From a virus (taxonomy: Duplodnaviria > Heunggongvirae > Uroviricota > Caudoviricetes), in the IMG/VR virus record IMGVR_UViG_2534681934_000021, positions 1 through 7,469 of that record: DNA of 7,469 nt; one strand, 5' to 3'. Both the position numbers and the translations under genes were made by a program. Below are positions 1-7,469 of this stretch, piece by piece. Under the pieces are notes generated by a model. It did no database searches. It was not told the DNA's origin and was given only the letters and a program-made list of their open reading frames with translations. Positions within the stretch are counted from its first letter, which is position 1; each line of letters begins with the position of its first letter.

Positions 1-975
1 TTACACATCATTAGTACCTTCCTTATTTTTTGACTGGGACAAATTTGGGACCGATGGGTTCAGGATCGAGTCTATTTGCCGTGCGTGTTCGGTAAGGTGA
101 TTAGGTGCAAGGTGAGCATATCGACGAACCATTTCGATAGACTCCCAGCCTCCCATTTCCTGTAACACTGACAACGGGACTCCGGCTTGAACCAGCCAAC
201 TTGCCCAGGTGTGTCTCAAGTCGTGAAATCTGAAATCATCAATACCAGCCCGTCTCAGCGCCGCTTTCCAGGCTGTGTTTGCGTCATACCGCATCTTCCT
301 TACTGTTGGCGCTTTCGTTCCGTCTGGTTTGGTACAGCTTTCCTTGTACACAAATACCCAACGGTGATGATTACCGATTTGTTTTTTCAATACGCGACAT
401 GCAGTATCATTCAGCGCAACGCCAATTGCGCGGTTTGATTTACTCTCTTCCGGGTTTATCCATGCCACCCGGCGCTGCATATCTATTTGTTGCCATTCAA
501 GGTTGATGATGTTCGAGCGTCTTAAGCCTGTTGCCAGTGCAAATTCAACAACAGACTTTAATGGCTCCGGACATTCATCAATCAGCCTTTGTGCTTCATG
601 GGGCTCCAGCCAGCGGATCCGTTTATTCTTTGGTTGAGGCACTTTAATAATTGGTGCCTTATCGAGCATTTTCCATTCACGCTCTGCGGCTCTTAGCAGG
701 GCCTTTATAAATGAAAGATGCGTAGCCTTCGTTGCAACGGACGCTGGTTTTGGCGTGTATTCTGGAACAGGTTTCCCTTTTTTTCTGCATGCTTCTGCCC
801 TGAGTTTCCAGTTTTCCTCATGACGCCGGTTCGTCATTTTCTGCATTGCTGAATAAATTTTTGATTCAGTAATGTCTCTTAGTTGCATTCCTGCGAAATG
901 TTGAAGCCAGAATCCGATCTGCTTTCCATTGAGCCTGTTTCTCTGCGCGACGTTCGCGGCGGCGTGTTTGTGCAT
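1..975 (-). CDS. int: Tyrosine site-specific recombinase/integrase, 5'-truncated (core-binding and catalytic domains only); the ORF begins at an ATG in the N leader and its first ~20 codons are N DNA read in the +1 frame
   Basis: C-terminal motifs [18 protein letters not shown] and RRYAHL match the Arg/His-x-x-Arg/Tyr catalytic signature of tyrosine recombinases. There is no arm-binding N-terminal domain. The sequence upstream of ~918 is identical to the lambda N start as I recall it, so the N-terminus is a deletion fusion. The protein is not similar to lambda Int. Confidence 0.72.
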
Positions 976-1282: not shown

Positions 1283-2158
1283 TTATATAGATTTATTTTT
1301 TGCAGGGTTGTGTGGCTTGGGAGGTGATCGAGAGATCAGAATTGCGTTGTTTAGTGAGTTGCACCTATTAATTTTAAAATAAATACAATTGCCTTTTTTT
1401 CGATCTTCCCACCAGTCAGGTGCCGGGTCTGGCTCAACATGTAAAGCATCGGCAAGTCCTGATATCAAGCTGTATGACTGAACTCCATCAATGTGCTCTG
1501 ACAGTGATGGGGTAACATTCTGTCTTAGTGGATCAAGAATAAAATCAATACCTTTAATTCTGGCGTGTTTGGCGGCAGGCACAAAGTCTGAGTCCCCAGC
1601 AACAAGGACAATTACATCAACAAGTTTTTCATAAGCTAAAGTCGTGATATCCATCCCTAGCTTGATATCAACTTGTTTTTGTTTGATGTCATAGTAAAAA
1701 TCATCATTTGTCAGTTCATCCCATTTTTTCGTTCCTTTCATCAGAGCATCAAGGGAGAATGTAGTTAGTTGCCATCGCTTATTATCAACAAGATTCCCTA
1801 ATCTTAAGGCTGTTTTTCGAGTTTTTCTTAACTCTTCATGCAGCTCCGTTCTCAGAATATATGATTTTTCGAGTTTGAAATTCTTGCGACCAGGCGTCTT
1901 ATTGCCAGGCTCAGGAAGTGGAAGGCGTGTTTGAATGTCGAGTGGTGGACAGTCATAGAAGTAAATTCTATAAAGCTCAAGCGGTTCCCTACGTTCTTGT
2001 GATTGACGTTTTCCATTAAGATGGGAAAGAACCATTGACCATATTACTTTCATTATGCATTGCGCAGTCAGTTCATGCTCGGCGAAGTGTTTACGATGCG
2101 TAGCATGAACACGCTGCATGAAAAAACCCGCATCAATTAAAATTGCTGCTTTCTTCAT
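1283..2158 (-). CDS. NYN/LabA-like (PIN-fold) nuclease-domain protein, 291 aa; a cargo gene occupying the rexA-rexB position; candidate exclusion/defence gene
   Basis: The N-terminal MKKAAILIDAGFF and C-terminal VLVAGDSDFVPAAKHARIKG motifs are typical of NYN/LabA domains, along with an internal acidic motif (VDIKLGMDI). The start ATG is at 2158. The gene lies between the cI stop (2286) and the point where lambda-like sequence resumes (~1400). The last ~38 codons read through lambda-like DNA. Confidence 0.7.
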   Translation of the reverse strand: MKKAAILIDAGFFMQRVHATHRKHFAEHELTAQCIMKVIWSMVLSHLNGKRQSQERREPLELYRIYFYDCPPLDIQTRLPLPEPGNKTPGRKNFKLEKSYILRTELHEELRKTRKTALRLGNLVDNKRWQLTTFSLDALMKGTKKWDELTNDDFYYDIKQKQVDIKLGMDITTLAYEKLVDVIVLVAGDSDFVPAAKHARIKGIDFILDPLRQNVTPSLSEHIDGVQSYSLISGLADALHVEPDPAPDWWEDRKKGNCIYFKINRCNSLNNAILISRSPPKPHNPAKNKSI

Positions 2159-2167
2159 AAGAGTCCC

Positions 2168-2227
2168 AAAAAAATAGCCCAGAGCCGTTATGCAGATATT
2201 AACAATTGTCTGCGAACGGGGCTGGGC
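2168..2227 (-). terminator. Candidate intrinsic terminator/attenuator hairpin followed by U7, immediately upstream of the NYN start codon
   Basis: On the minus-strand RNA: GCCCAG-CC-CCGUU...(inner stem GCAGA/UCUGC)...AACGG-CU-CUGGGC, then UAUUUUUUU (plus 2168-2174 is A7). The outer stem is 11 bp with a 2x2 internal loop. Confidence 0.35.
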
Positions 2228-2238
2228 TTGGTTTAATT

Positions 2239-2267
2239 AATCTATGCCAAGTTGACTGTGCCGTCAA
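2239..2267 (-). promoter_or_regulatory. Candidate sigma70 promoter between cI and the NYN gene, overlapping a perfect palindrome TTGAC-N6-GTCAA
   Basis: -35 TTGACG (complement of 2262-2267), 17-bp spacer, -10 TAGATT (complement of 2239-2244). The palindrome ttgactgtgccgtcaa is at 2252-2267. Confidence 0.25.
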
Positions 2268-2285
2268 CATAAAACTTACTTCCTA

Positions 2286-2998
<713 letters not shown>

Positions 2999-3004
2999 AC
3001 GTTA

Positions 3005-3074
3005 AATCTATCACCGCAAGGGATAAATATCTAACACCGCGCGTGTTGACTACTTTACCTCTGGCGGTGATAAT
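3005..3074. promoter_or_regulatory. Right operator region: OR3 (3009-3025), OR2 (3032-3048), OR1 (3056-3072), with divergent pRM (leftward) and pR (rightward)
   Basis: OR3 TATCACCGCAAGGGATA, OR2 TAACACCGCGCGTGTTG, OR1 TACCTCTGGCGGTGATA. pR has -35 TTGACT (3046-3051) and -10 GATAAT (3069-3074). pRM has -10 TAGATT (complement of 3005-3010) and -35 TAGATA (complement of 3028-3033). Confidence 0.85.
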
Positions 3075-3089
3075 GGTTGCATGTACTAA

Positions 3090-3302
<213 letters not shown>

Positions 3303-3305
3303 CCC

Positions 3306-3337
3306 CGCTCTTACACATTCCAGCCCTGAAAAAGGGC
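3306..3337 (+). promoter_or_regulatory. nutR: nutR (boxA CGCTCTTAC 3306-3314; boxB GCCCTGAAAAAGGGC 3323-3337)
   Basis: Both elements match the lambda nutR boxA/boxB as recalled, directly downstream of cro. Confidence 0.75.
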
Positions 3338-3399
3338 ATCCAATTAAACCACACCTATGGTGTATGCATTTATTTGCATACATTCAATCAATTGTTATC

Positions 3400-3440
3400 T
3401 AAGGAAATACTTACATATGGTTCGTGCAAACAAACGCAAC
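3400..3440 (-). promoter_or_regulatory. pRE, the CII-activated promoter for repressor establishment
   Basis: The minus strand carries the CII binding motif TTGC-N6-TTGC (TTGCGTTTGTTTGC, complement of 3426-3439) overlapping the cII start, with a -10-like AAGTAT downstream, as in lambda. Confidence 0.5.
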
Positions 3441-3710
3441 GAGGCTCTACGAATCGAGAGTGCGTTGCTTAACAAAATCGCAATGCTTGGAACTGAGAAG
3501 ACAGCGGAAGCTGTGGGAGTTGATAAGTCGCAGATCAGCAGGTGGAAGAGAGACTGGATTCCAAAGTTCTCAATGCTGCTTGCTGTTCTTGAATGGGGGG
3601 TCGTTGACGACGACATGGCTCGATTGGCGCGACAAGTTGCTGCGATTCTCACCAATAAAAAACGCCCGGCGGCAACCGAGCGTTCTGAACAAATCCAGAT
3701 GGAGTTCTGA
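3417..3710 (+). CDS. cII: CII transcriptional activator, 97 aa, apparently intact
   Basis: MVRANKRNEALRIESALLNKIAMLGTEKTAEAVGVDKSQISRWKRDWIPKF...EQIQMEF matches lambda CII. The ATG is at 3417; the ORF track's upstream start at 3357 is an in-frame extension. Confidence 0.9.
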   Translation: MVRANKRNEALRIESALLNKIAMLGTEKTAEAVGVDKSQISRWKRDWIPKFSMLLAVLEWGVVDDDMARLARQVAAILTNKKRPAATERSEQIQMEF

Positions 3711-3733
3711 GGTCATTACTGGATCTATCAACA
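3656..3733 (-). ncRNA. oop: oop antisense RNA (~77 nt) overlapping the 3' end of cII
   Basis: The minus strand reads GTTGATAGATCCAGTAATGACCTCAGAACTCCATCTGGATTTGTTCAGAACGCTCGGTTGCCGCCGGGCGTTTTTTATT, i.e. the lambda oop sequence as recalled, with a GC-rich hairpin and U-tract terminator. Confidence 0.65.
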
Positions 3734-3742
3734 GGAGTCATT

Positions 3743-4664
3743 ATGACAAATACAGCAAAAATACTCAACTTCGGCAGAGGTAACTTTGCCGGACAGGAGC
3801 GTAATGTGGCAGATCTCGATGATGGTTACGCCAGACTATCAAATATGCTGCTTGAGGCTTATTCGGGCGCAGATCTGACCAAGCGACAGTTTAAAGTGCT
3901 GCTTGCCATTCTGCGTAAAACCTATGGGTGGAATAAACCAATGGACAGAATCACCGATTCTCAACTTAGCGAGATTACAAAGTTACCTGTCAAACGGTGC
4001 AATGAAGCCAAGTTAGAACTCGTCAGAATGAATATTATCAAGCAGCAAGGCGGCATGTTTGGACCAAATAAAAACATCTCAGAATGGTGTATCCCTCAAA
4101 ACGAGGGAAAATCCCCTAAAACGAGGGATAAAACATCCCTCAAATTGGGGGATTGCTATCCCTCAAATTGGGGGATTGCTATCCCTCAAAACAGGGGGAC
4201 ACAAAAGACACTATTACAAAAGAAAAAGAAAAGATTATTCGTCCGAGAATTCTGGCGAATCCTCTGACCAGCCAGAAAACGATCTTTCTGTGGTTAAACC
4301 GGATGCTGCAATTCAGAGCGGCAGCAAGTGGGGAACAGCAGAAGACCTGACCGCCGCAGAGTGGATGTTTGACATGGTGAAGACCATCGCGCCATCAGCC
4401 AGAAAACCGAATTTTGCTGGGTGGGCTAACGATATCCGCCTGATGCGTGAACGTGACGGACGTAACCACCGCGATATGTGTGTGCTTTTCCGCTGGGCCT
4501 GCCAGGACAACTTCTGGTCCGGTAACGTGCTGAGTCCGGCCAAACTCCGCGACAAGTGGACCCAGCTCGAAATCAACCGTAACAAGCAACAGGCAGGCGT
4601 GACAGCCAGCAAACCAAAACTCGACCTGACAAACACTGACTGGATTTACGGGGTGGATTTATGA
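3743..4664 (+). pseudogene. O: Replication initiator O, disrupted by a 23-bp tandem duplication inside the ori iterons and by a 1-bp shorter A-run
   Basis: The N-terminal 174-aa ORF (3743-4267) matches lambda O up to the iterons. An intermediate frame (4153-4350) matches ...LKLGDCYPSKQGDTKDTITKEK. The C-terminal portion (KRKDYSSENSG... to GVDL) is in a third frame, ending at 4664. Confidence 0.85.
4092..4198 (+). repeat. ori-lambda iterons, five copies where lambda has four (iteron 3 tandemly duplicated), followed by an AT-rich region
   Basis: tccctcaaaacgaggga (4092-4108), tcccctaaaacgaggga (4112-4128), tccctcaaattggggga (4135-4151 and again at 4158-4174), tccctcaaaacaggggga (4181-4198). 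The duplicated 23-bp unit is 4135-4157 and 4158-4180. Confidence 0.8.
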
Positions 4665-4972
4665 AAAACATCGCCGCACAGATGGTTAACTTTGACCGTG
4701 AGCAGATGCGTCGGATCGCCAACATCGATAACCAGGACATGACGATATCGGTCTGGGTCTTTCCTGATACTGATATTTCAGATGTATCGCGTGAGTTAAT
4801 TGCGGCAATTAAACAGGGGTATCTAACAGTAAAAGCCGCCGGGGTATGGGCGGGGGGCATTGAAACACCTTCGGTGGAAACTCCATCGGAAGGCTCTAAA
4901 TTTTTTGGTTTTGATATGGATAACGAATTCATCAGTGGTTTTGATGTAGGGGCATGGGGAGTATTACTCTGA
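4661..4972 (+). pseudogene. P: P' remnant: the first ~21 codons of replication protein P fused in frame to the C-terminal ~80 codons of an unidentified tail/baseplate-module gene (deletion junction near 4725)
   Basis: MKNIAAQMVNFDREQMRRIAN matches the lambda P N-terminus, then diverges (IDNQDMTISVWVFPDTD...). The ATG overlaps the O stop, and the ORF's own stop overlaps the downstream stf start (TGATG at 4970-4974). Confidence 0.7.
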
Positions 4973-5766
4973 TGGCGAAAAATGACTTTAAAGCGTTTGC
5001 AACTGATCGAAATGCCAATGTTATGTCGCAGGAGGAATGGGAAGCGTTGCCTGCGCTTATATCCGGATTTACAGCAGGGAAAGCATCCAGTGCGCAAGTC
5101 AATAAGGTTATTCGGCAGGCCAGCTTTATTGCTGCAGCTCTGGCCCAGTTTGTAAGTGATAAAACGCAACGGGATGTGCTTGATAATGGTGATCTGCCCG
5201 GTTTTGTTGAATTGCTGGGATCGGGGTTTGCTGTTGAATACCTGAGCCGCAAGAATCCGTTTGGCGATATCAAATCGGACGGCACGGTGAAAACGGCTCT
5301 TCAAAACCTTGGTTTGGGAGAAGGTGCTCCAGCTATTGGCGTTCCGTTCTTCTGGCCGTCCGCTGCAATGCCAAATACTGTAATCGACAGCTGGTCCTGT
5401 ATGGTGTTTTTGAAGTTCAACGGCGCGAAATTCTCTGCCACTGATTATCCTGTGCTGGCGAAAGTGTTTCCTTCGCTGGTATTACCTGAAGCCCGCGGTG
5501 ATTTCATTCGTATCTGGGATGACGGGCGAGGTGCAGACGGTGGTCGCGAATTATTAAGCTGGCAGGCAGCTACAAACTTTTCTCAGTTTGCCGGGAATAT
5601 AGGCGAAGGTGCGGGACACGCAATTAACTTTCATGATGGCATCGCCGGAAATCAGCCAGGATTTTCACGATTTAATTTCACCAGTAACTCTGTGGGTGAT
5701 GGTGTGAATTTTGTTGCAGTCAGACCGCGAAATATTGCATTTAACTTTCTGGTGAGGGCTAAATAA
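4954..5766 (+). CDS. stf: Short side tail fibre protein with a receptor-binding-type C-terminus; the likely true start is ATG 4972 (MAKNDF...)
   Basis: C-terminal motifs [12 protein letters not shown]...[20 protein letters not shown]...[19 protein letters not shown]...[11 protein letters not shown] resemble the lambda Stf and P2 H / Mu S C-termini (GAPIPWP...NIAFNYIVRLA). It is followed directly by tfa. Confidence 0.75.
5297..5322. other. Candidate DNA-invertase (Pin/Gin/Cin/Hin family) crossover site inside stf
   Basis: The 26-bp sequence CTCTTCAAAACC-TT-GGTTTGGGAGAA has imperfect 12-bp inverted half-sites around a 2-bp core. It fits the AAACC-NN-GGTTT pattern of hix/gix/cix/pix sites and lies at the boundary between the constant and variable parts of the fibre. 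Confidence 0.5.
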
Positions 5767-6359
5767 TGAAACCTGTTTTTGATGAAAATGGGCTGGCTAC
5801 AGTGCCGGGCGATATGCGTTGTTTTTATTATGATGCTGAAACATCTGAGTATACGGGCTGGTCTGATGAATATATTAATACTGGCGTAAGTATGCCCGCC
5901 TGTTCCACTGGTATTGACCCTGGCGAAAACATTCCGGGAAGAGTGGCAGTATTTACAGGTAAGGGATGGAGCCATGAAGAAGACCATCGCAATGAGACTG
6001 TTTACTCAATCGAAAATGGCGCAGCTGTTACAGTGGATTATATCGGTGCCATCAAAGACGGTTATGTCACGATTTCACCGTTAACGCCATACGATAAATG
6101 GGATGGTGAGAAATGGGTGACAGACACTGAGGCACAACACAGTGCCGCAGTAGACGCGGCAGAAGCACAGCGCCAATCACTGATTGATGCAGCAATGGCT
6201 TCCATTAGTCTGATTCAGCTGAAGTTACAGGCCGGACGGAAACTGACTCAGGCAGAAACAACCCGACTTAACGCCGTGCTGGATTACATTGACGCGGTGA
6301 CGGCAACAGATACCAGCACCGCGCCGGATGTCATCTGGCCTGAACTGCCGGAGGCGTAG
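5766..6359 (+). CDS. tfa: Tail fibre assembly protein (chaperone), 197 aa
   Basis: The ATG overlaps the stf stop (TAATG). The C-terminus ...LNAVLDYIDAVTATDTSTAPDVIWPELPEA is typical of the lambda Tfa / Mu U family (VDTSTAPDIEWP). Confidence 0.8.
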   Translation: MKPVFDENGLATVPGDMRCFYYDAETSEYTGWSDEYINTGVSMPACSTGIDPGENIPGRVAVFTGKGWSHEEDHRNETVYSIENGAAVTVDYIGAIKDGYVTISPLTPYDKWDGEKWVTDTEAQHSAAVDAAEAQRQSLIDAAMASISLIQLKLQAGRKLTQAETTRLNAVLDYIDAVTATDTSTAPDVIWPELPEA

Positions 6360-6783
6360 GCCATTCAATATCTGGCGCACCGGAAGTATCGACCAGCTCC
6401 AGTGCGTCCAGATAATCCAGCCACAAATTATATTGCGTCAGTTCGTCACCTTTCAGACGACCAATAGCCGCTTTACCGGGCCATTGCTTACTGTTCATGT
6501 ATTCGTTGGCCTGGTTAATTAGTAGCTGTCTTTCTGATTCAGTAATTTCAATAAGCTCTTCATGCGTGGGTGGAGGAATATCTGCCCACGCAGGCAGCCC
6601 ATCATCTCCGGCAATACGGATTTTTCCTTGTGGCGGTTCAGCCATAAACTCACTGATAATATTTTGATTTACTTCCTTAGCGTCTGATAAATCCCATCCC
6701 TCTGATTTATATTTATCAATCATATCCACAGGGAAAAAAGCATTATGCCTTGCGCTATAAACATATTCGTCCATATAAATCAC
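6331..6783 (-). CDS. tfa: Second tail fibre assembly protein in inverted orientation (U'-like), orphaned from its fibre gene; the likely start is ATG at 6774
   Basis: The C-terminus ...NLWLDYLDALELVDTSGAPDIEWPTPPAVQAR is Tfa-family. It converges on the plus-strand tfa with a ~29-bp 3' overlap, the classic invertible-segment arrangement. Confidence 0.75.
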   Translation of the reverse strand: MIYMDEYVYSARHNAFFPVDMIDKYKSEGWDLSDAKEVNQNIISEFMAEPPQGKIRIAGDDGLPAWADIPPPTHEELIEITESERQLLINQANEYMNSKQWPGKAAIGRLKGDELTQYNLWLDYLDALELVDTSGAPDIEWPTPPAVQAR

Positions 6784-6891
6784 CCTGAATAAAATTACTC
6801 ACCAACAGCCCACCAACTGTAATTCATCGATACCGTGTGAACCGCCCCGGGTTTCCTGGAGACTAAACTCCCTGAGAAAGAGGTAAACAGG

Positions 6892-7218
6892 ATGACTAAA
6901 AATACTCGTTTTTCCCCCGAAGTCCGTCAGCGGGCGATTCGTATGGTTCTGGAAAGTCAGGATGAATATGACTCACAGTGGGCGGCAATTTGTTCCATTG
7001 CCCCAAAGATTGGCTGTACGCCGGAGACTCTGCGTGTCTGGGTTCGCCAGCATGAGCGGGATACCGGGGGCGGTGATGGTGGGCTCACCAGCGCTGAACG
7101 TCAGCGTCTGAAAGAGCTGGAACGTGAAAATCGTGAACTGCGCCGCAGTAACGATATCCTTCGCCAGGCTTCCGCTTATTTTGCGAAGGCGGAGTTCGAC
7201 CGCCTCTGGAAAAAATGA
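6892..7218 (+). CDS. IS3-family transposase OrfA (helix-turn-helix / leucine-zipper part)
   Basis: [22 protein letters not shown]...[36 protein letters not shown]. It ends at an A6 run followed by TGA (7210-7218). Confidence 0.85.
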
Positions 7219-7469
7219 TGCCACTGCTGGATAAGCTGCGTGAGCAGTACGGGGTCGGACCGGTATGCAGCGAACTGCATATTGCCCCGTCAACGTATTA
7301 CCATTGTCAGCAACAGCGACATCATCCGGATAAACGCAGTGCCCGTGCGCAGCACGACGACTGGCTGAAGAGAGAGATACAGCGCGTATACGATGAAAAT
7401 CATCAGGTGTACGGTGTGCGTAAAGTCTGGCGTCAGTTGTTACGGGAAGGAATCAGGGTGGCCAGATGT
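7215..7469 (+). CDS. IS3-family transposase OrfB, N-terminal part (partial; -1 frame relative to orfA, 3' end beyond the window)
   Basis: The -1 frame is open from 7215 to the window end: [85 protein letters not shown], typical of IS3 OrfB before the DDE domain. Confidence 0.75.

Follow-up and report, generated by a model that had tools for sequence, protein, structure and literature searches.

The open reading frame at positions 4661-4972 (+ strand) of the stretch of DNA analysed here (7,469 nt, hereafter the window) is a real, though ordinary, scar of a deletion: the beginning of a lambda/21-type replication gene P (P') continues in frame into the 3' end of a baseplate-wedge gene ('wedge). 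The window represents the thrW cryptic prophage CP-933H of strain EDL933, which is Sp1 of strain Sakai, in Escherichia coli O157:H7. The scar ORF and the position of the fibre genes behind the promoter pR probably result from the in-frame loss of about 26 kb, in a single deletion, from a thrW lambdoid prophage with a myovirus-type tail; we assign this origin a probability of roughly 75%.

The literature and the databases already cover the element, including the truncation of P and the defective state. New in the present analysis are the breakpoint at single-base resolution, the derivation of the ORF's second half from a wedge gene and a connection to expression data from the literature, while the intact comparators supply the size (~26 kb) and the content of the loss.

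Structure and parents of the fusion ORF

The following features of the window are relevant to the fusion ORF and its surroundings:

3046..3074, + strand: pR (TTGACT-17-GATAAT, 10/12 match) in a lambda-type oR, presumed transcription source for the fusion ORF and the fibre genes
3099..3302, + strand: cro, a Cro/CI family regulator in EDL933
3417..3710, + strand: cII, Z0310 in EDL933
3743..4664, + strand: replication gene O (Phage_rep_O, E=1.9e-36), frameshifted in EDL933
4661..4724, + strand: P', remnant of a lambda/21-type replication gene P (64 nt at 100%)
4725..4972, + strand: 'wedge, 3' end of a DUF2612/Phage_Wedge1 baseplate-wedge gene (residues 145-226 and stop), in the frame of P'
4970..4974, + strand: TGATG stop/start overlap of the fusion ORF and stf (CTCTGATGGCG; TGA 4970-4972, stf ATG 4972-4974)
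4972..5766, + strand: tail-fibre gene stf, 264 aa, of the same length as in intact phages
5766..6359, + strand: tail-fibre assembly chaperone gene tfa, 197 aa (Caudo_TAP, E=2.3e-27)
6331..6783, - strand: alternative tfa' of the invertible fibre cassette (Caudo_TAP, E=2.9e-30)
6838..7469, + strand: IS629/IS1203 (IS3 family) inside the alternative stf', separating the window from the second crossover site and pin

The sequence around 3046-3074 reads as oR/pR of lambda. In the O gene, ori iteron 3 is duplicated in tandem (23 bp, 4135-4180), which breaks the gene; in the window O also bears a 1-nt deletion at 4222. The constant N-terminal part of stf stops at the invertase crossover core at 5309-5323.

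According to the ORF listing the fusion ORF encodes 103 aa, with MKNIAAQMVNFDREQMRRIAN-IDNQDM... at the N-terminal side. The initial annotation had described it as P reduced to 21 codons and fused to the tail end of a tail-module gene, and had proposed to align 4661-4730 with P and to search phage tail proteins with the translation of 4725-4972. Both comparisons bear this description out. Residues 1-21 are identical to P of phage 21 (21/21, BLASTP), and in a megablast of positions 4300-5300 against 50,697 phage records the DNA of 4300-4724 matched O-P of phage 21, lambda imm21, phi458 and further phages with 100% identity, in a single block running on from O. The identity to P extends through 4724 and thus covers 21 codons and the first base of codon 22. 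Since these 64 nt are contiguous with the O block and match at 100%, a chance resemblance is excluded.

In the same megablast the window from 4725 to 5300 showed 97.9% DNA identity to vB_EcoM-606R2/611R5/683R1, where it spans the end of a gene for a 226-aa protein and the start of stf. Residues 23-103 of the fusion correspond to residues 146-226 of this protein with 81/81 identities. The full-length parent belongs to Pfam family DUF2612 (PF11041, alias Phage_Wedge1; E=2.5e-47, 161.6 bits), and its gene lies between baseplate J and stf in intact prophages, directly upstream of stf in those with contractile tails. The partner of P is therefore indeed the 3' end of a tail-module gene, which contributes 82 of the 103 codons. 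Five nucleotides in 4725-4972 differ from those of the intact wedge gene, all of them silently.

The junction was resolved by a three-way alignment and direct inspection. The P donor reads ...GATCGCCAACA|ACATGCC and the wedge donor ...ATGCAGATAG|TCGATAACC, while the window reads ...GATCGCCAACA|TCGATAACC. No microhomology was found at 4724/4725 (0 nt); as the two donors have no base in common at the crossover, the join is a blunt, illegitimate one. The wedge identity begins at the second base of a codon and P ends at the first base of codon 22, so that the reading frame is kept across the join.

The TGATG overlap between the fusion ORF and stf was located where the initial annotation had placed it, and it is native to the wedge-gene/stf junction of an intact phage, which shows the same 1-nt overlap (L002, 5568..6248 / 6248..7042). 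The overlap was thus inherited and is not a product of the deletion. Furthermore, overlapping stop and start codons also link O to P' (ATGA) and stf to tfa (TAATG), so the whole chain is built alike. The translational coupling of stf to the fusion ORF that had been proposed along with the overlap is putative, the overlap being what suggests it. An independent initiation of stf is also possible, as a Shine-Dalgarno-like motif (GGGGAG) is located 10 nt upstream of the gene.

Identity and state of the prophage

The window matches the EDL933 chromosome at 300-306 kb with 99.9% identity, and its positions 1811-6838 show 0 mismatches and 3 single-base gaps. The gaps reflect three 1-nt homopolymer deletions, which are unique to the window, resemble sequencing errors and all lie outside 4661-4972. 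Further features in which the window varies from EDL933 are an intact NYN gene, of which 407 nt are missing from EDL933, and the IS629 at 6838. The exact 103-aa sequence of the fusion protein already bears the name CP-933H in the databases. A junction query was found with 100% identity over its full length in 204 of 5426 complete E. coli genomes, O157:H7 chromosomes being among the matches, and the identical junction occurs in 7 IMG/VR contigs. An exact-match scan for the junction among the GTDB species-representative genomes gave no match.

In EDL933 the element directly follows proA and thrW. It is flanked on both sides by at least 39 nt repeated from the 3' end of thrW (L001 2064-2102 and 12650-12688), which means that both att repeats are kept. 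The window itself begins at the int stop, and thrW is visible in the matching genomes only. The int remnant is 99% identical to the int of the thrW-integrating Shigella phages SfIV, SfI, SfV and SfII and of the E. coli phage phi458. A second scar is present in the element, where N is joined at about codon 20 to int.

Asadulghani et al. described Sp1 as a highly degraded lambdoid prophage in which repressor and Cro are present (PMC2669165). It is defective in integration and replication and lacks any morphogenesis, packaging and lysis functions. Neither excision nor amplification was observed, yet the residual early genes were clearly induced by mitomycin C, with "biological significance unknown" (PMC2669165).

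The source names of CP-933H/Sp1 call the entire ORF a P fragment, whereas we find most of it to be wedge-derived. Likewise, PGAP divides it into two pseudogene fragments and names both of them replication protein. Judging from the sequence, which derives from the wedge gene, the label "phage replication protein" is wrong for the second fragment (261 nt).

Intact relatives and the origin of the junction

The ancestor of CP-933H/Sp1 would have been a thrW-integrated mosaic lambdoid prophage with a contractile (myovirus-type) tail. An illegitimate deletion starting at P codon 22 and reaching codon 145 of the DUF2612/Phage_Wedge1 gene, the last of the baseplate-wedge genes, would have removed the rest of P, ren/nin, Q, the lysis, packaging and head genes and nearly all tail genes, and would have kept the stf-tfa invertible fibre cassette intact. 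One event within one phage genome appears to be the most economical origin.

Phage phi458 is colinear with the element at either end. On the left, window 1-919 corresponds to phi458 61-979 (int), 919-1005 to 8409-8495 (start of N) and 3304-4724 to 10849-12247 (cII-O-P'). It shares int, N, O-P and att with the element, also matches its attR-proximal DNA and carries an stf/invertase region at its right end. Due to its lambda-type siphovirus tail phi458 was rejected as a model of the full ancestor; it represents the ends and the left arm only.

The thrW prophage of strain 2018-06-4CC is of full length, with the order int-exo/bet/gam-repressor-cro-O-P-ren-nin-Q-lysis-terminase-head-sheath/tube-baseplate J-wedge-stf-tfa-tfa'-stf'-pinE-GIY-YIG-attR. 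Compared with Sp1 it shows identities of 98.4% in the int region, 96.4% in pinE-GIY-YIG and 97.2% in the attR region; in O-P the identity is 95% and the homology extends precisely to the junction. The last wedge gene of this prophage is of the YmfQ type and not DUF2612, and we therefore rejected it as the direct ancestor. That the best complete thrW comparator ends its wedge genes in this way is a weak point of the single-deletion origin.

Contigs with both modules were sought in IMG/VR by intersecting the best 80 of 481 contigs carrying the wedge gene with the first 120 that carry an uncut 5' end of P. At least one contig has both on the same strand, namely 3300010259_000006 (32.6 kb), a metagenome assembly of which both ends were read, on either side of the middle 11 kb (11033-22145). 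One end comprises a lambda/21-type gam...N...cI...O-P-ren-nin-Q region with 96.7-98.8% identity to the window, phage 21 and phi458, and the other a tail of the 611R5 type that includes stf and the complete wedge gene (97%). This two-module contig is possibly chimeric, being a metagenome assembly, which is a further weakness of the single-deletion origin.

The three intact comparators share the order int...O-P-nin-Q-lysis-head-tail-wedge-stf, and the distance between the two breakpoints is 26.26 kb in contig 3300010259_000006, 26.5 kb in phi458 and 25.8 kb in the 2018-06-4CC prophage. These colinear relatives, together with the two retained thrW att repeats, support the large deletion from P to just upstream of the fibre genes that the initial annotation had suggested. 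The proposed loss of the head and tail morphogenesis cluster is likewise supported by the comparators, with the refinement that the lost tail was of the myovirus type and not the siphovirus tail of lambda.

A chimeric query consisting of the 5' part of the wedge gene and window 4725-6830 detected the full DUF2612 gene with this stf in 36 complete E. coli genomes. The two prophages inspected are located at the yfhL/yfhH site, carry a DNA polymerase and lack O/P; this speaks against the single-deletion origin, and taken alone the search lent no support to a single ancestor. The wedge tail module is also present at other chromosomal sites, and its occurrence at several integration sites indicates that such modules are freely reassorted. 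Among the 50,697 phage records none was found with both modules, a further point against the single-deletion origin; a tblastn search with the wedge protein gave 61 records, mostly from hosts other than E. coli. For four E. coli phage records listed among the wedge-protein matches, megablast covered the wedge/stf half only and not O-P. The NYN gene beside cI was used as a marker of the left arm; its relatives are lambda-like (ev099, 2B8, Stx2a phages) and are absent among the wedge-protein matches.

The same outcome would have resulted from an illegitimate recombination between a lambda-type thrW prophage and a separate DUF2612-tailed myovirus, the latter being integrated in tandem at thrW or at another site, or entering as an infecting genome. 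We regard this as a possible but clearly less probable origin. It is suggested by the different types of the nearest intact relatives of the two arms, which are phage 21, phi458, ev099 and the Stx phages on the left and the vB_EcoM-611R5-type prophages at yfhL/yfhH with a DNA polymerase on the right. The right arm of Sp1 is, moreover, itself composite: a stretch of about 350 nt behind GIY-YIG is homologous to a chromosomal tRNA-Ser region, and its AraC/IS3 part is found independently elsewhere. The absence of microhomology also fits, as expected of any illegitimate event. However, the retention of both thrW att repeats and the match of the attR-proximal DNA to phi458 and the 2018-06-4CC prophage argue against a second element, and so does the 96% identity that pinE-GIY-YIG shows to the right end of a thrW prophage whose int is the same. 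Furthermore, a contig with both modules in the correct order and spacing exists, and the free reassortment of the wedge-gene tail modules across integration sites likewise speaks against it.

The notion that the junction is a chance resemblance or an assembly artefact could draw on the error-like homopolymer deletions of the window, but it is hardly credible, as the fusion ORF holds none of them, the 64 nt of P are contiguous with about 1.4 kb of O/cII homology, and the occurrence of the same junction in the 204 complete genomes and the 7 IMG/VR contigs shows that it is not an assembly artefact.

Probable transcription from pR and fate of the peptide

After the presumed single deletion, pR, which is repressed by a lambda-type SOS-cleavable cI, would now read cro-cII-O'-P'::'wedge-stf-tfa. 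Read-through of the scar from this cI-controlled promoter would render the fusion ORF and the fibre genes inducible by DNA damage. On the + strand no intrinsic terminator-like site is predicted between pR and 6359, the end of tfa.

Landstorfer et al. provided strand-specific transcriptomes of EDL933 under 11 conditions, among them treatment with trimethoprim-sulfamethoxazole, which induces the SOS response (PMC4048457 supplement). Under this treatment cI was unchanged (logFC 0.5, RPKM 228), while strong increases were recorded for cII (Z0310; logFC 7.7, RPKM 465), O' (Z0311; 7.5, 297), O'' (Z0312; 8.1, 108), the fusion ORF (Z0313; 6.7, 162) and the fibre gene Z0314 (6.0, 92), as well as for Z0315 (4.5, 32), Z0316 (5.3, 123) and Z0317 (7.6, 121) (PMC4048457). 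In plain LB the RPKM values were 1-12 for all of these genes but cI (PMC4048457). The assignment of Z0314-Z0317 to stf, tfa, tfa' and stf' was made from the order of the genes only. The induction of cII, O', the fusion ORF, stf and tfa thus ranges from 2^4.5- to 2^8-fold and follows a declining gradient (PMC4048457).

The placement of the fibre genes in the pR operon, as put forward in the initial annotation, is in agreement with the position of pR, the terminator-free stretch behind it and the co-induction with cII and O' (PMC4048457), and it also fits the mitomycin C induction of the residual early genes of Sp1 (PMC2669165). The co-induction is consistent with read-through from pR, and a single transcript may cover the whole stretch. 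Since N is deleted, the Rho-dependent terminator tR1 and the polarity caused by the broken O could limit this read-through. Z0316 and Z0317 are induced as well, although in the reference orientation they are encoded on the other strand; this would require the segment to have inverted in the culture or counting that was not strand-specific. The broken O and the truncated P offer a possible explanation for the induction without amplification that was noted in 2009. The scar likely accounts for the strong, hitherto unexplained induction of this dead prophage by SOS-inducing drugs, tail-fibre genes included, in which the DNA is not amplified.

The 103-aa peptide itself is most likely an inert by-product, presumably lacking any function of its own. 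In a Pfam scan no replication-protein family was detected in the fusion ORF, and the sole match, to DUF2612, reached 19.9-20.3 bits, which is below the gathering cut-off of 23.5, at profile positions 135/141-177 of 181. The lambda/phage 21 gpP is a DnaB helicase loader of about 233 aa with O-binding and DnaB-binding regions; the scar agrees with it in the first 21 residues (64 identical nt) and in the retained ATGA overlap with O, but lacks 212 of the 233 residues, and its product therefore cannot be a helicase loader. With the DUF2612/Phage_Wedge1 protein of the vB_EcoM-611R5-type prophages it shares the C-terminal 81 residues, the position just upstream of stf and the 1-nt overlap, whereas the first 144 residues are missing.

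That the chimera is instead a selected functional protein, either an adaptor in the docking or assembly of the fibres or a P-derived inhibitor of the replication of co-resident lambdoid phages, seems very unlikely. The ORF is intact and in frame, has the start region of P itself, is transcribed upon SOS induction and is kept in all of the 204 complete genomes bearing the junction. However, this conservation carries no weight in a clone as young as O157:H7, and an in-frame result has a prior of 1 in 3. The exclusively synonymous differences from the intact wedge gene would also agree with selection, but they may predate the deletion. Furthermore, merely 21 of the 233 residues of P are left, the breakpoint lies within the DUF2612 domain (profile position ~141 of 181), so that a native fold is unlikely, and PGAP scores both halves as pseudogene fragments.

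It is conceivable, yet in our view quite improbable, that the deletion created a DNA-damage-inducible, phase-variable fibre module (stf-tfa, with stf'-tfa' chosen by Pin inversion) that has been retained by the host lineage. Such a module might provide fibres and chaperones in trans to O157 prophages induced at the same time, provided that their baseplates or side-fibre sites are compatible, and might thereby alter the host range of the released particles, the wedge C-terminus of the peptide perhaps taking part in docking. The scar would gain in interest only if other O157 phages were shown to use the induced fibres; otherwise it has little weight beyond annotation hygiene.

A comparably short scar is the NinH fragment of phage 21, which is annotated as "10 N-term ninH codons fused to 7 other codons". 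Fibre and invertase genes have likewise been kept in e14 and in Rac/Qin of K-12. In contrast to other lambdoid scars and cryptic prophages, CP-933H/Sp1 has its intact fibre cassette in the early (pR) and not in the late operon.

Deletion scars of the Sp1 prophage

The comparison with the intact phage phi458 revealed a second deletion scar in addition to the in-frame join of P to the wedge gene at 4724/4725, and the latter overlaps an annotated fragment in the EDL933 reference copy (L001).

Window 866-975, minus strand, junction at about 919: second deletion scar, N joined to int
L001 6413-6673, corresponding to window about 4712-4972: pseudogene fragment, RefSeq/PGAP "phage replication protein, missing N-terminus"

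At the second scar the first codons (approximately 20) of a lambda-type N are fused to the interior of an int of the SfV/phi458 type with a microhomology of a single nucleotide (G). Relative to phi458, position 979 is joined to 8409, and the lost stretch of about 7.4 kb comprises the 5' end of int, xis, exo/bet/gam, kil, cIII and most of N. Approximately 20 codons of the cut gene remain at both scars.

Contrary to its RefSeq/PGAP label as a replication protein, the pseudogene fragment in EDL933 is the 3' end of a DUF2612/Phage_Wedge1 baseplate gene. A ClaI site (ATCGAT, window 4724-4729) arises from the P'-wedge junction and is absent from both parent sequences. Since the element is natural and widespread among O157 isolates, this site is taken as a coincidence.

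Immunity region and replication origin

Window 1283-2158, minus strand: intact NYN-domain gene, 291 aa (Pfam E=7e-9)
Window 2922, 3281 and 4222: three 1-base deletions in A/T homopolymer runs
Window 4135-4180: iteron 3 of ori-lambda, duplicated in tandem over 23 bp (ATCCCTCAAATTGGGGGATTGCT, two copies here, one in phage 21)

The NYN-domain gene is placed between pL and cI, the position of rexAB in lambda, and possibly represents an immunity-region defence or exclusion gene. In EDL933 and the other matched complete O157 genomes it either lacks 407 nt or is interrupted by IS1203; the stretch of special note in the window is 1404-1810. An intact NYN gene adjoins a lambda-type cI in the phages ev099, 2B8 and E212 as well as in many Stx2a phages, whose copies carry approximately 159 more bases (a small PIN/hypothetical gene) than the window.

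The iteron duplication results in five iterons and a frameshift in O, and is the origin of the "partial O" genes Z0311/Z0312. The three single-base deletions, identified against EDL933 and all seven IMG/VR copies, shift the frame of cI (2825-2998 / 2286-2879), change the C-terminus of Cro and cause a further frameshift in O. They resemble sequencing errors of the homopolymer type; if they are real, the strain would lack the Sp1 repressor and pR would be constitutively open.

Invertible tail-fibre segment and IS629

Window 5300-6838: Pin-type invertible segment with distal stf, tfa and the alternative pair tfa', stf'
Window 5309-5323: crossover core (TTGGTTTGGGAGAAG), inverted partner at L001 8855-8869
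Window 6838-7469: IS629/IS1203 (IS3 family), OrfA at 6892-7218

The segment is reversed in two IMG/VR contigs (L013 and L016), and therefore both orientations occur in nature. In this window the IS629 at 6838, which entered stf' 43 nt short of its 3' end, cuts the segment off from both pin and the second crossover site, and has probably locked the orientation of the segment. The insertion site varies between O157 strains; strain 155 carries the element in the NYN gene instead.

Right end of Sp1

L001 about 10492-10840 (not part of the window): approximately 350 nt located 3' of the Sp1 GIY-YIG gene

This stretch of EDL933 shares 96-98% identity with a chromosomal region annotated as tRNA-Ser in almost every E. 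coli genome (some part of the query matched in 5422 of 5426), and ARAGORN detected no tRNA in the Sp1 stretch. In other genomes the GIY-YIG and AraC/IS3 parts are found apart from each other, and the right end of Sp1 is therefore itself a patchwork.
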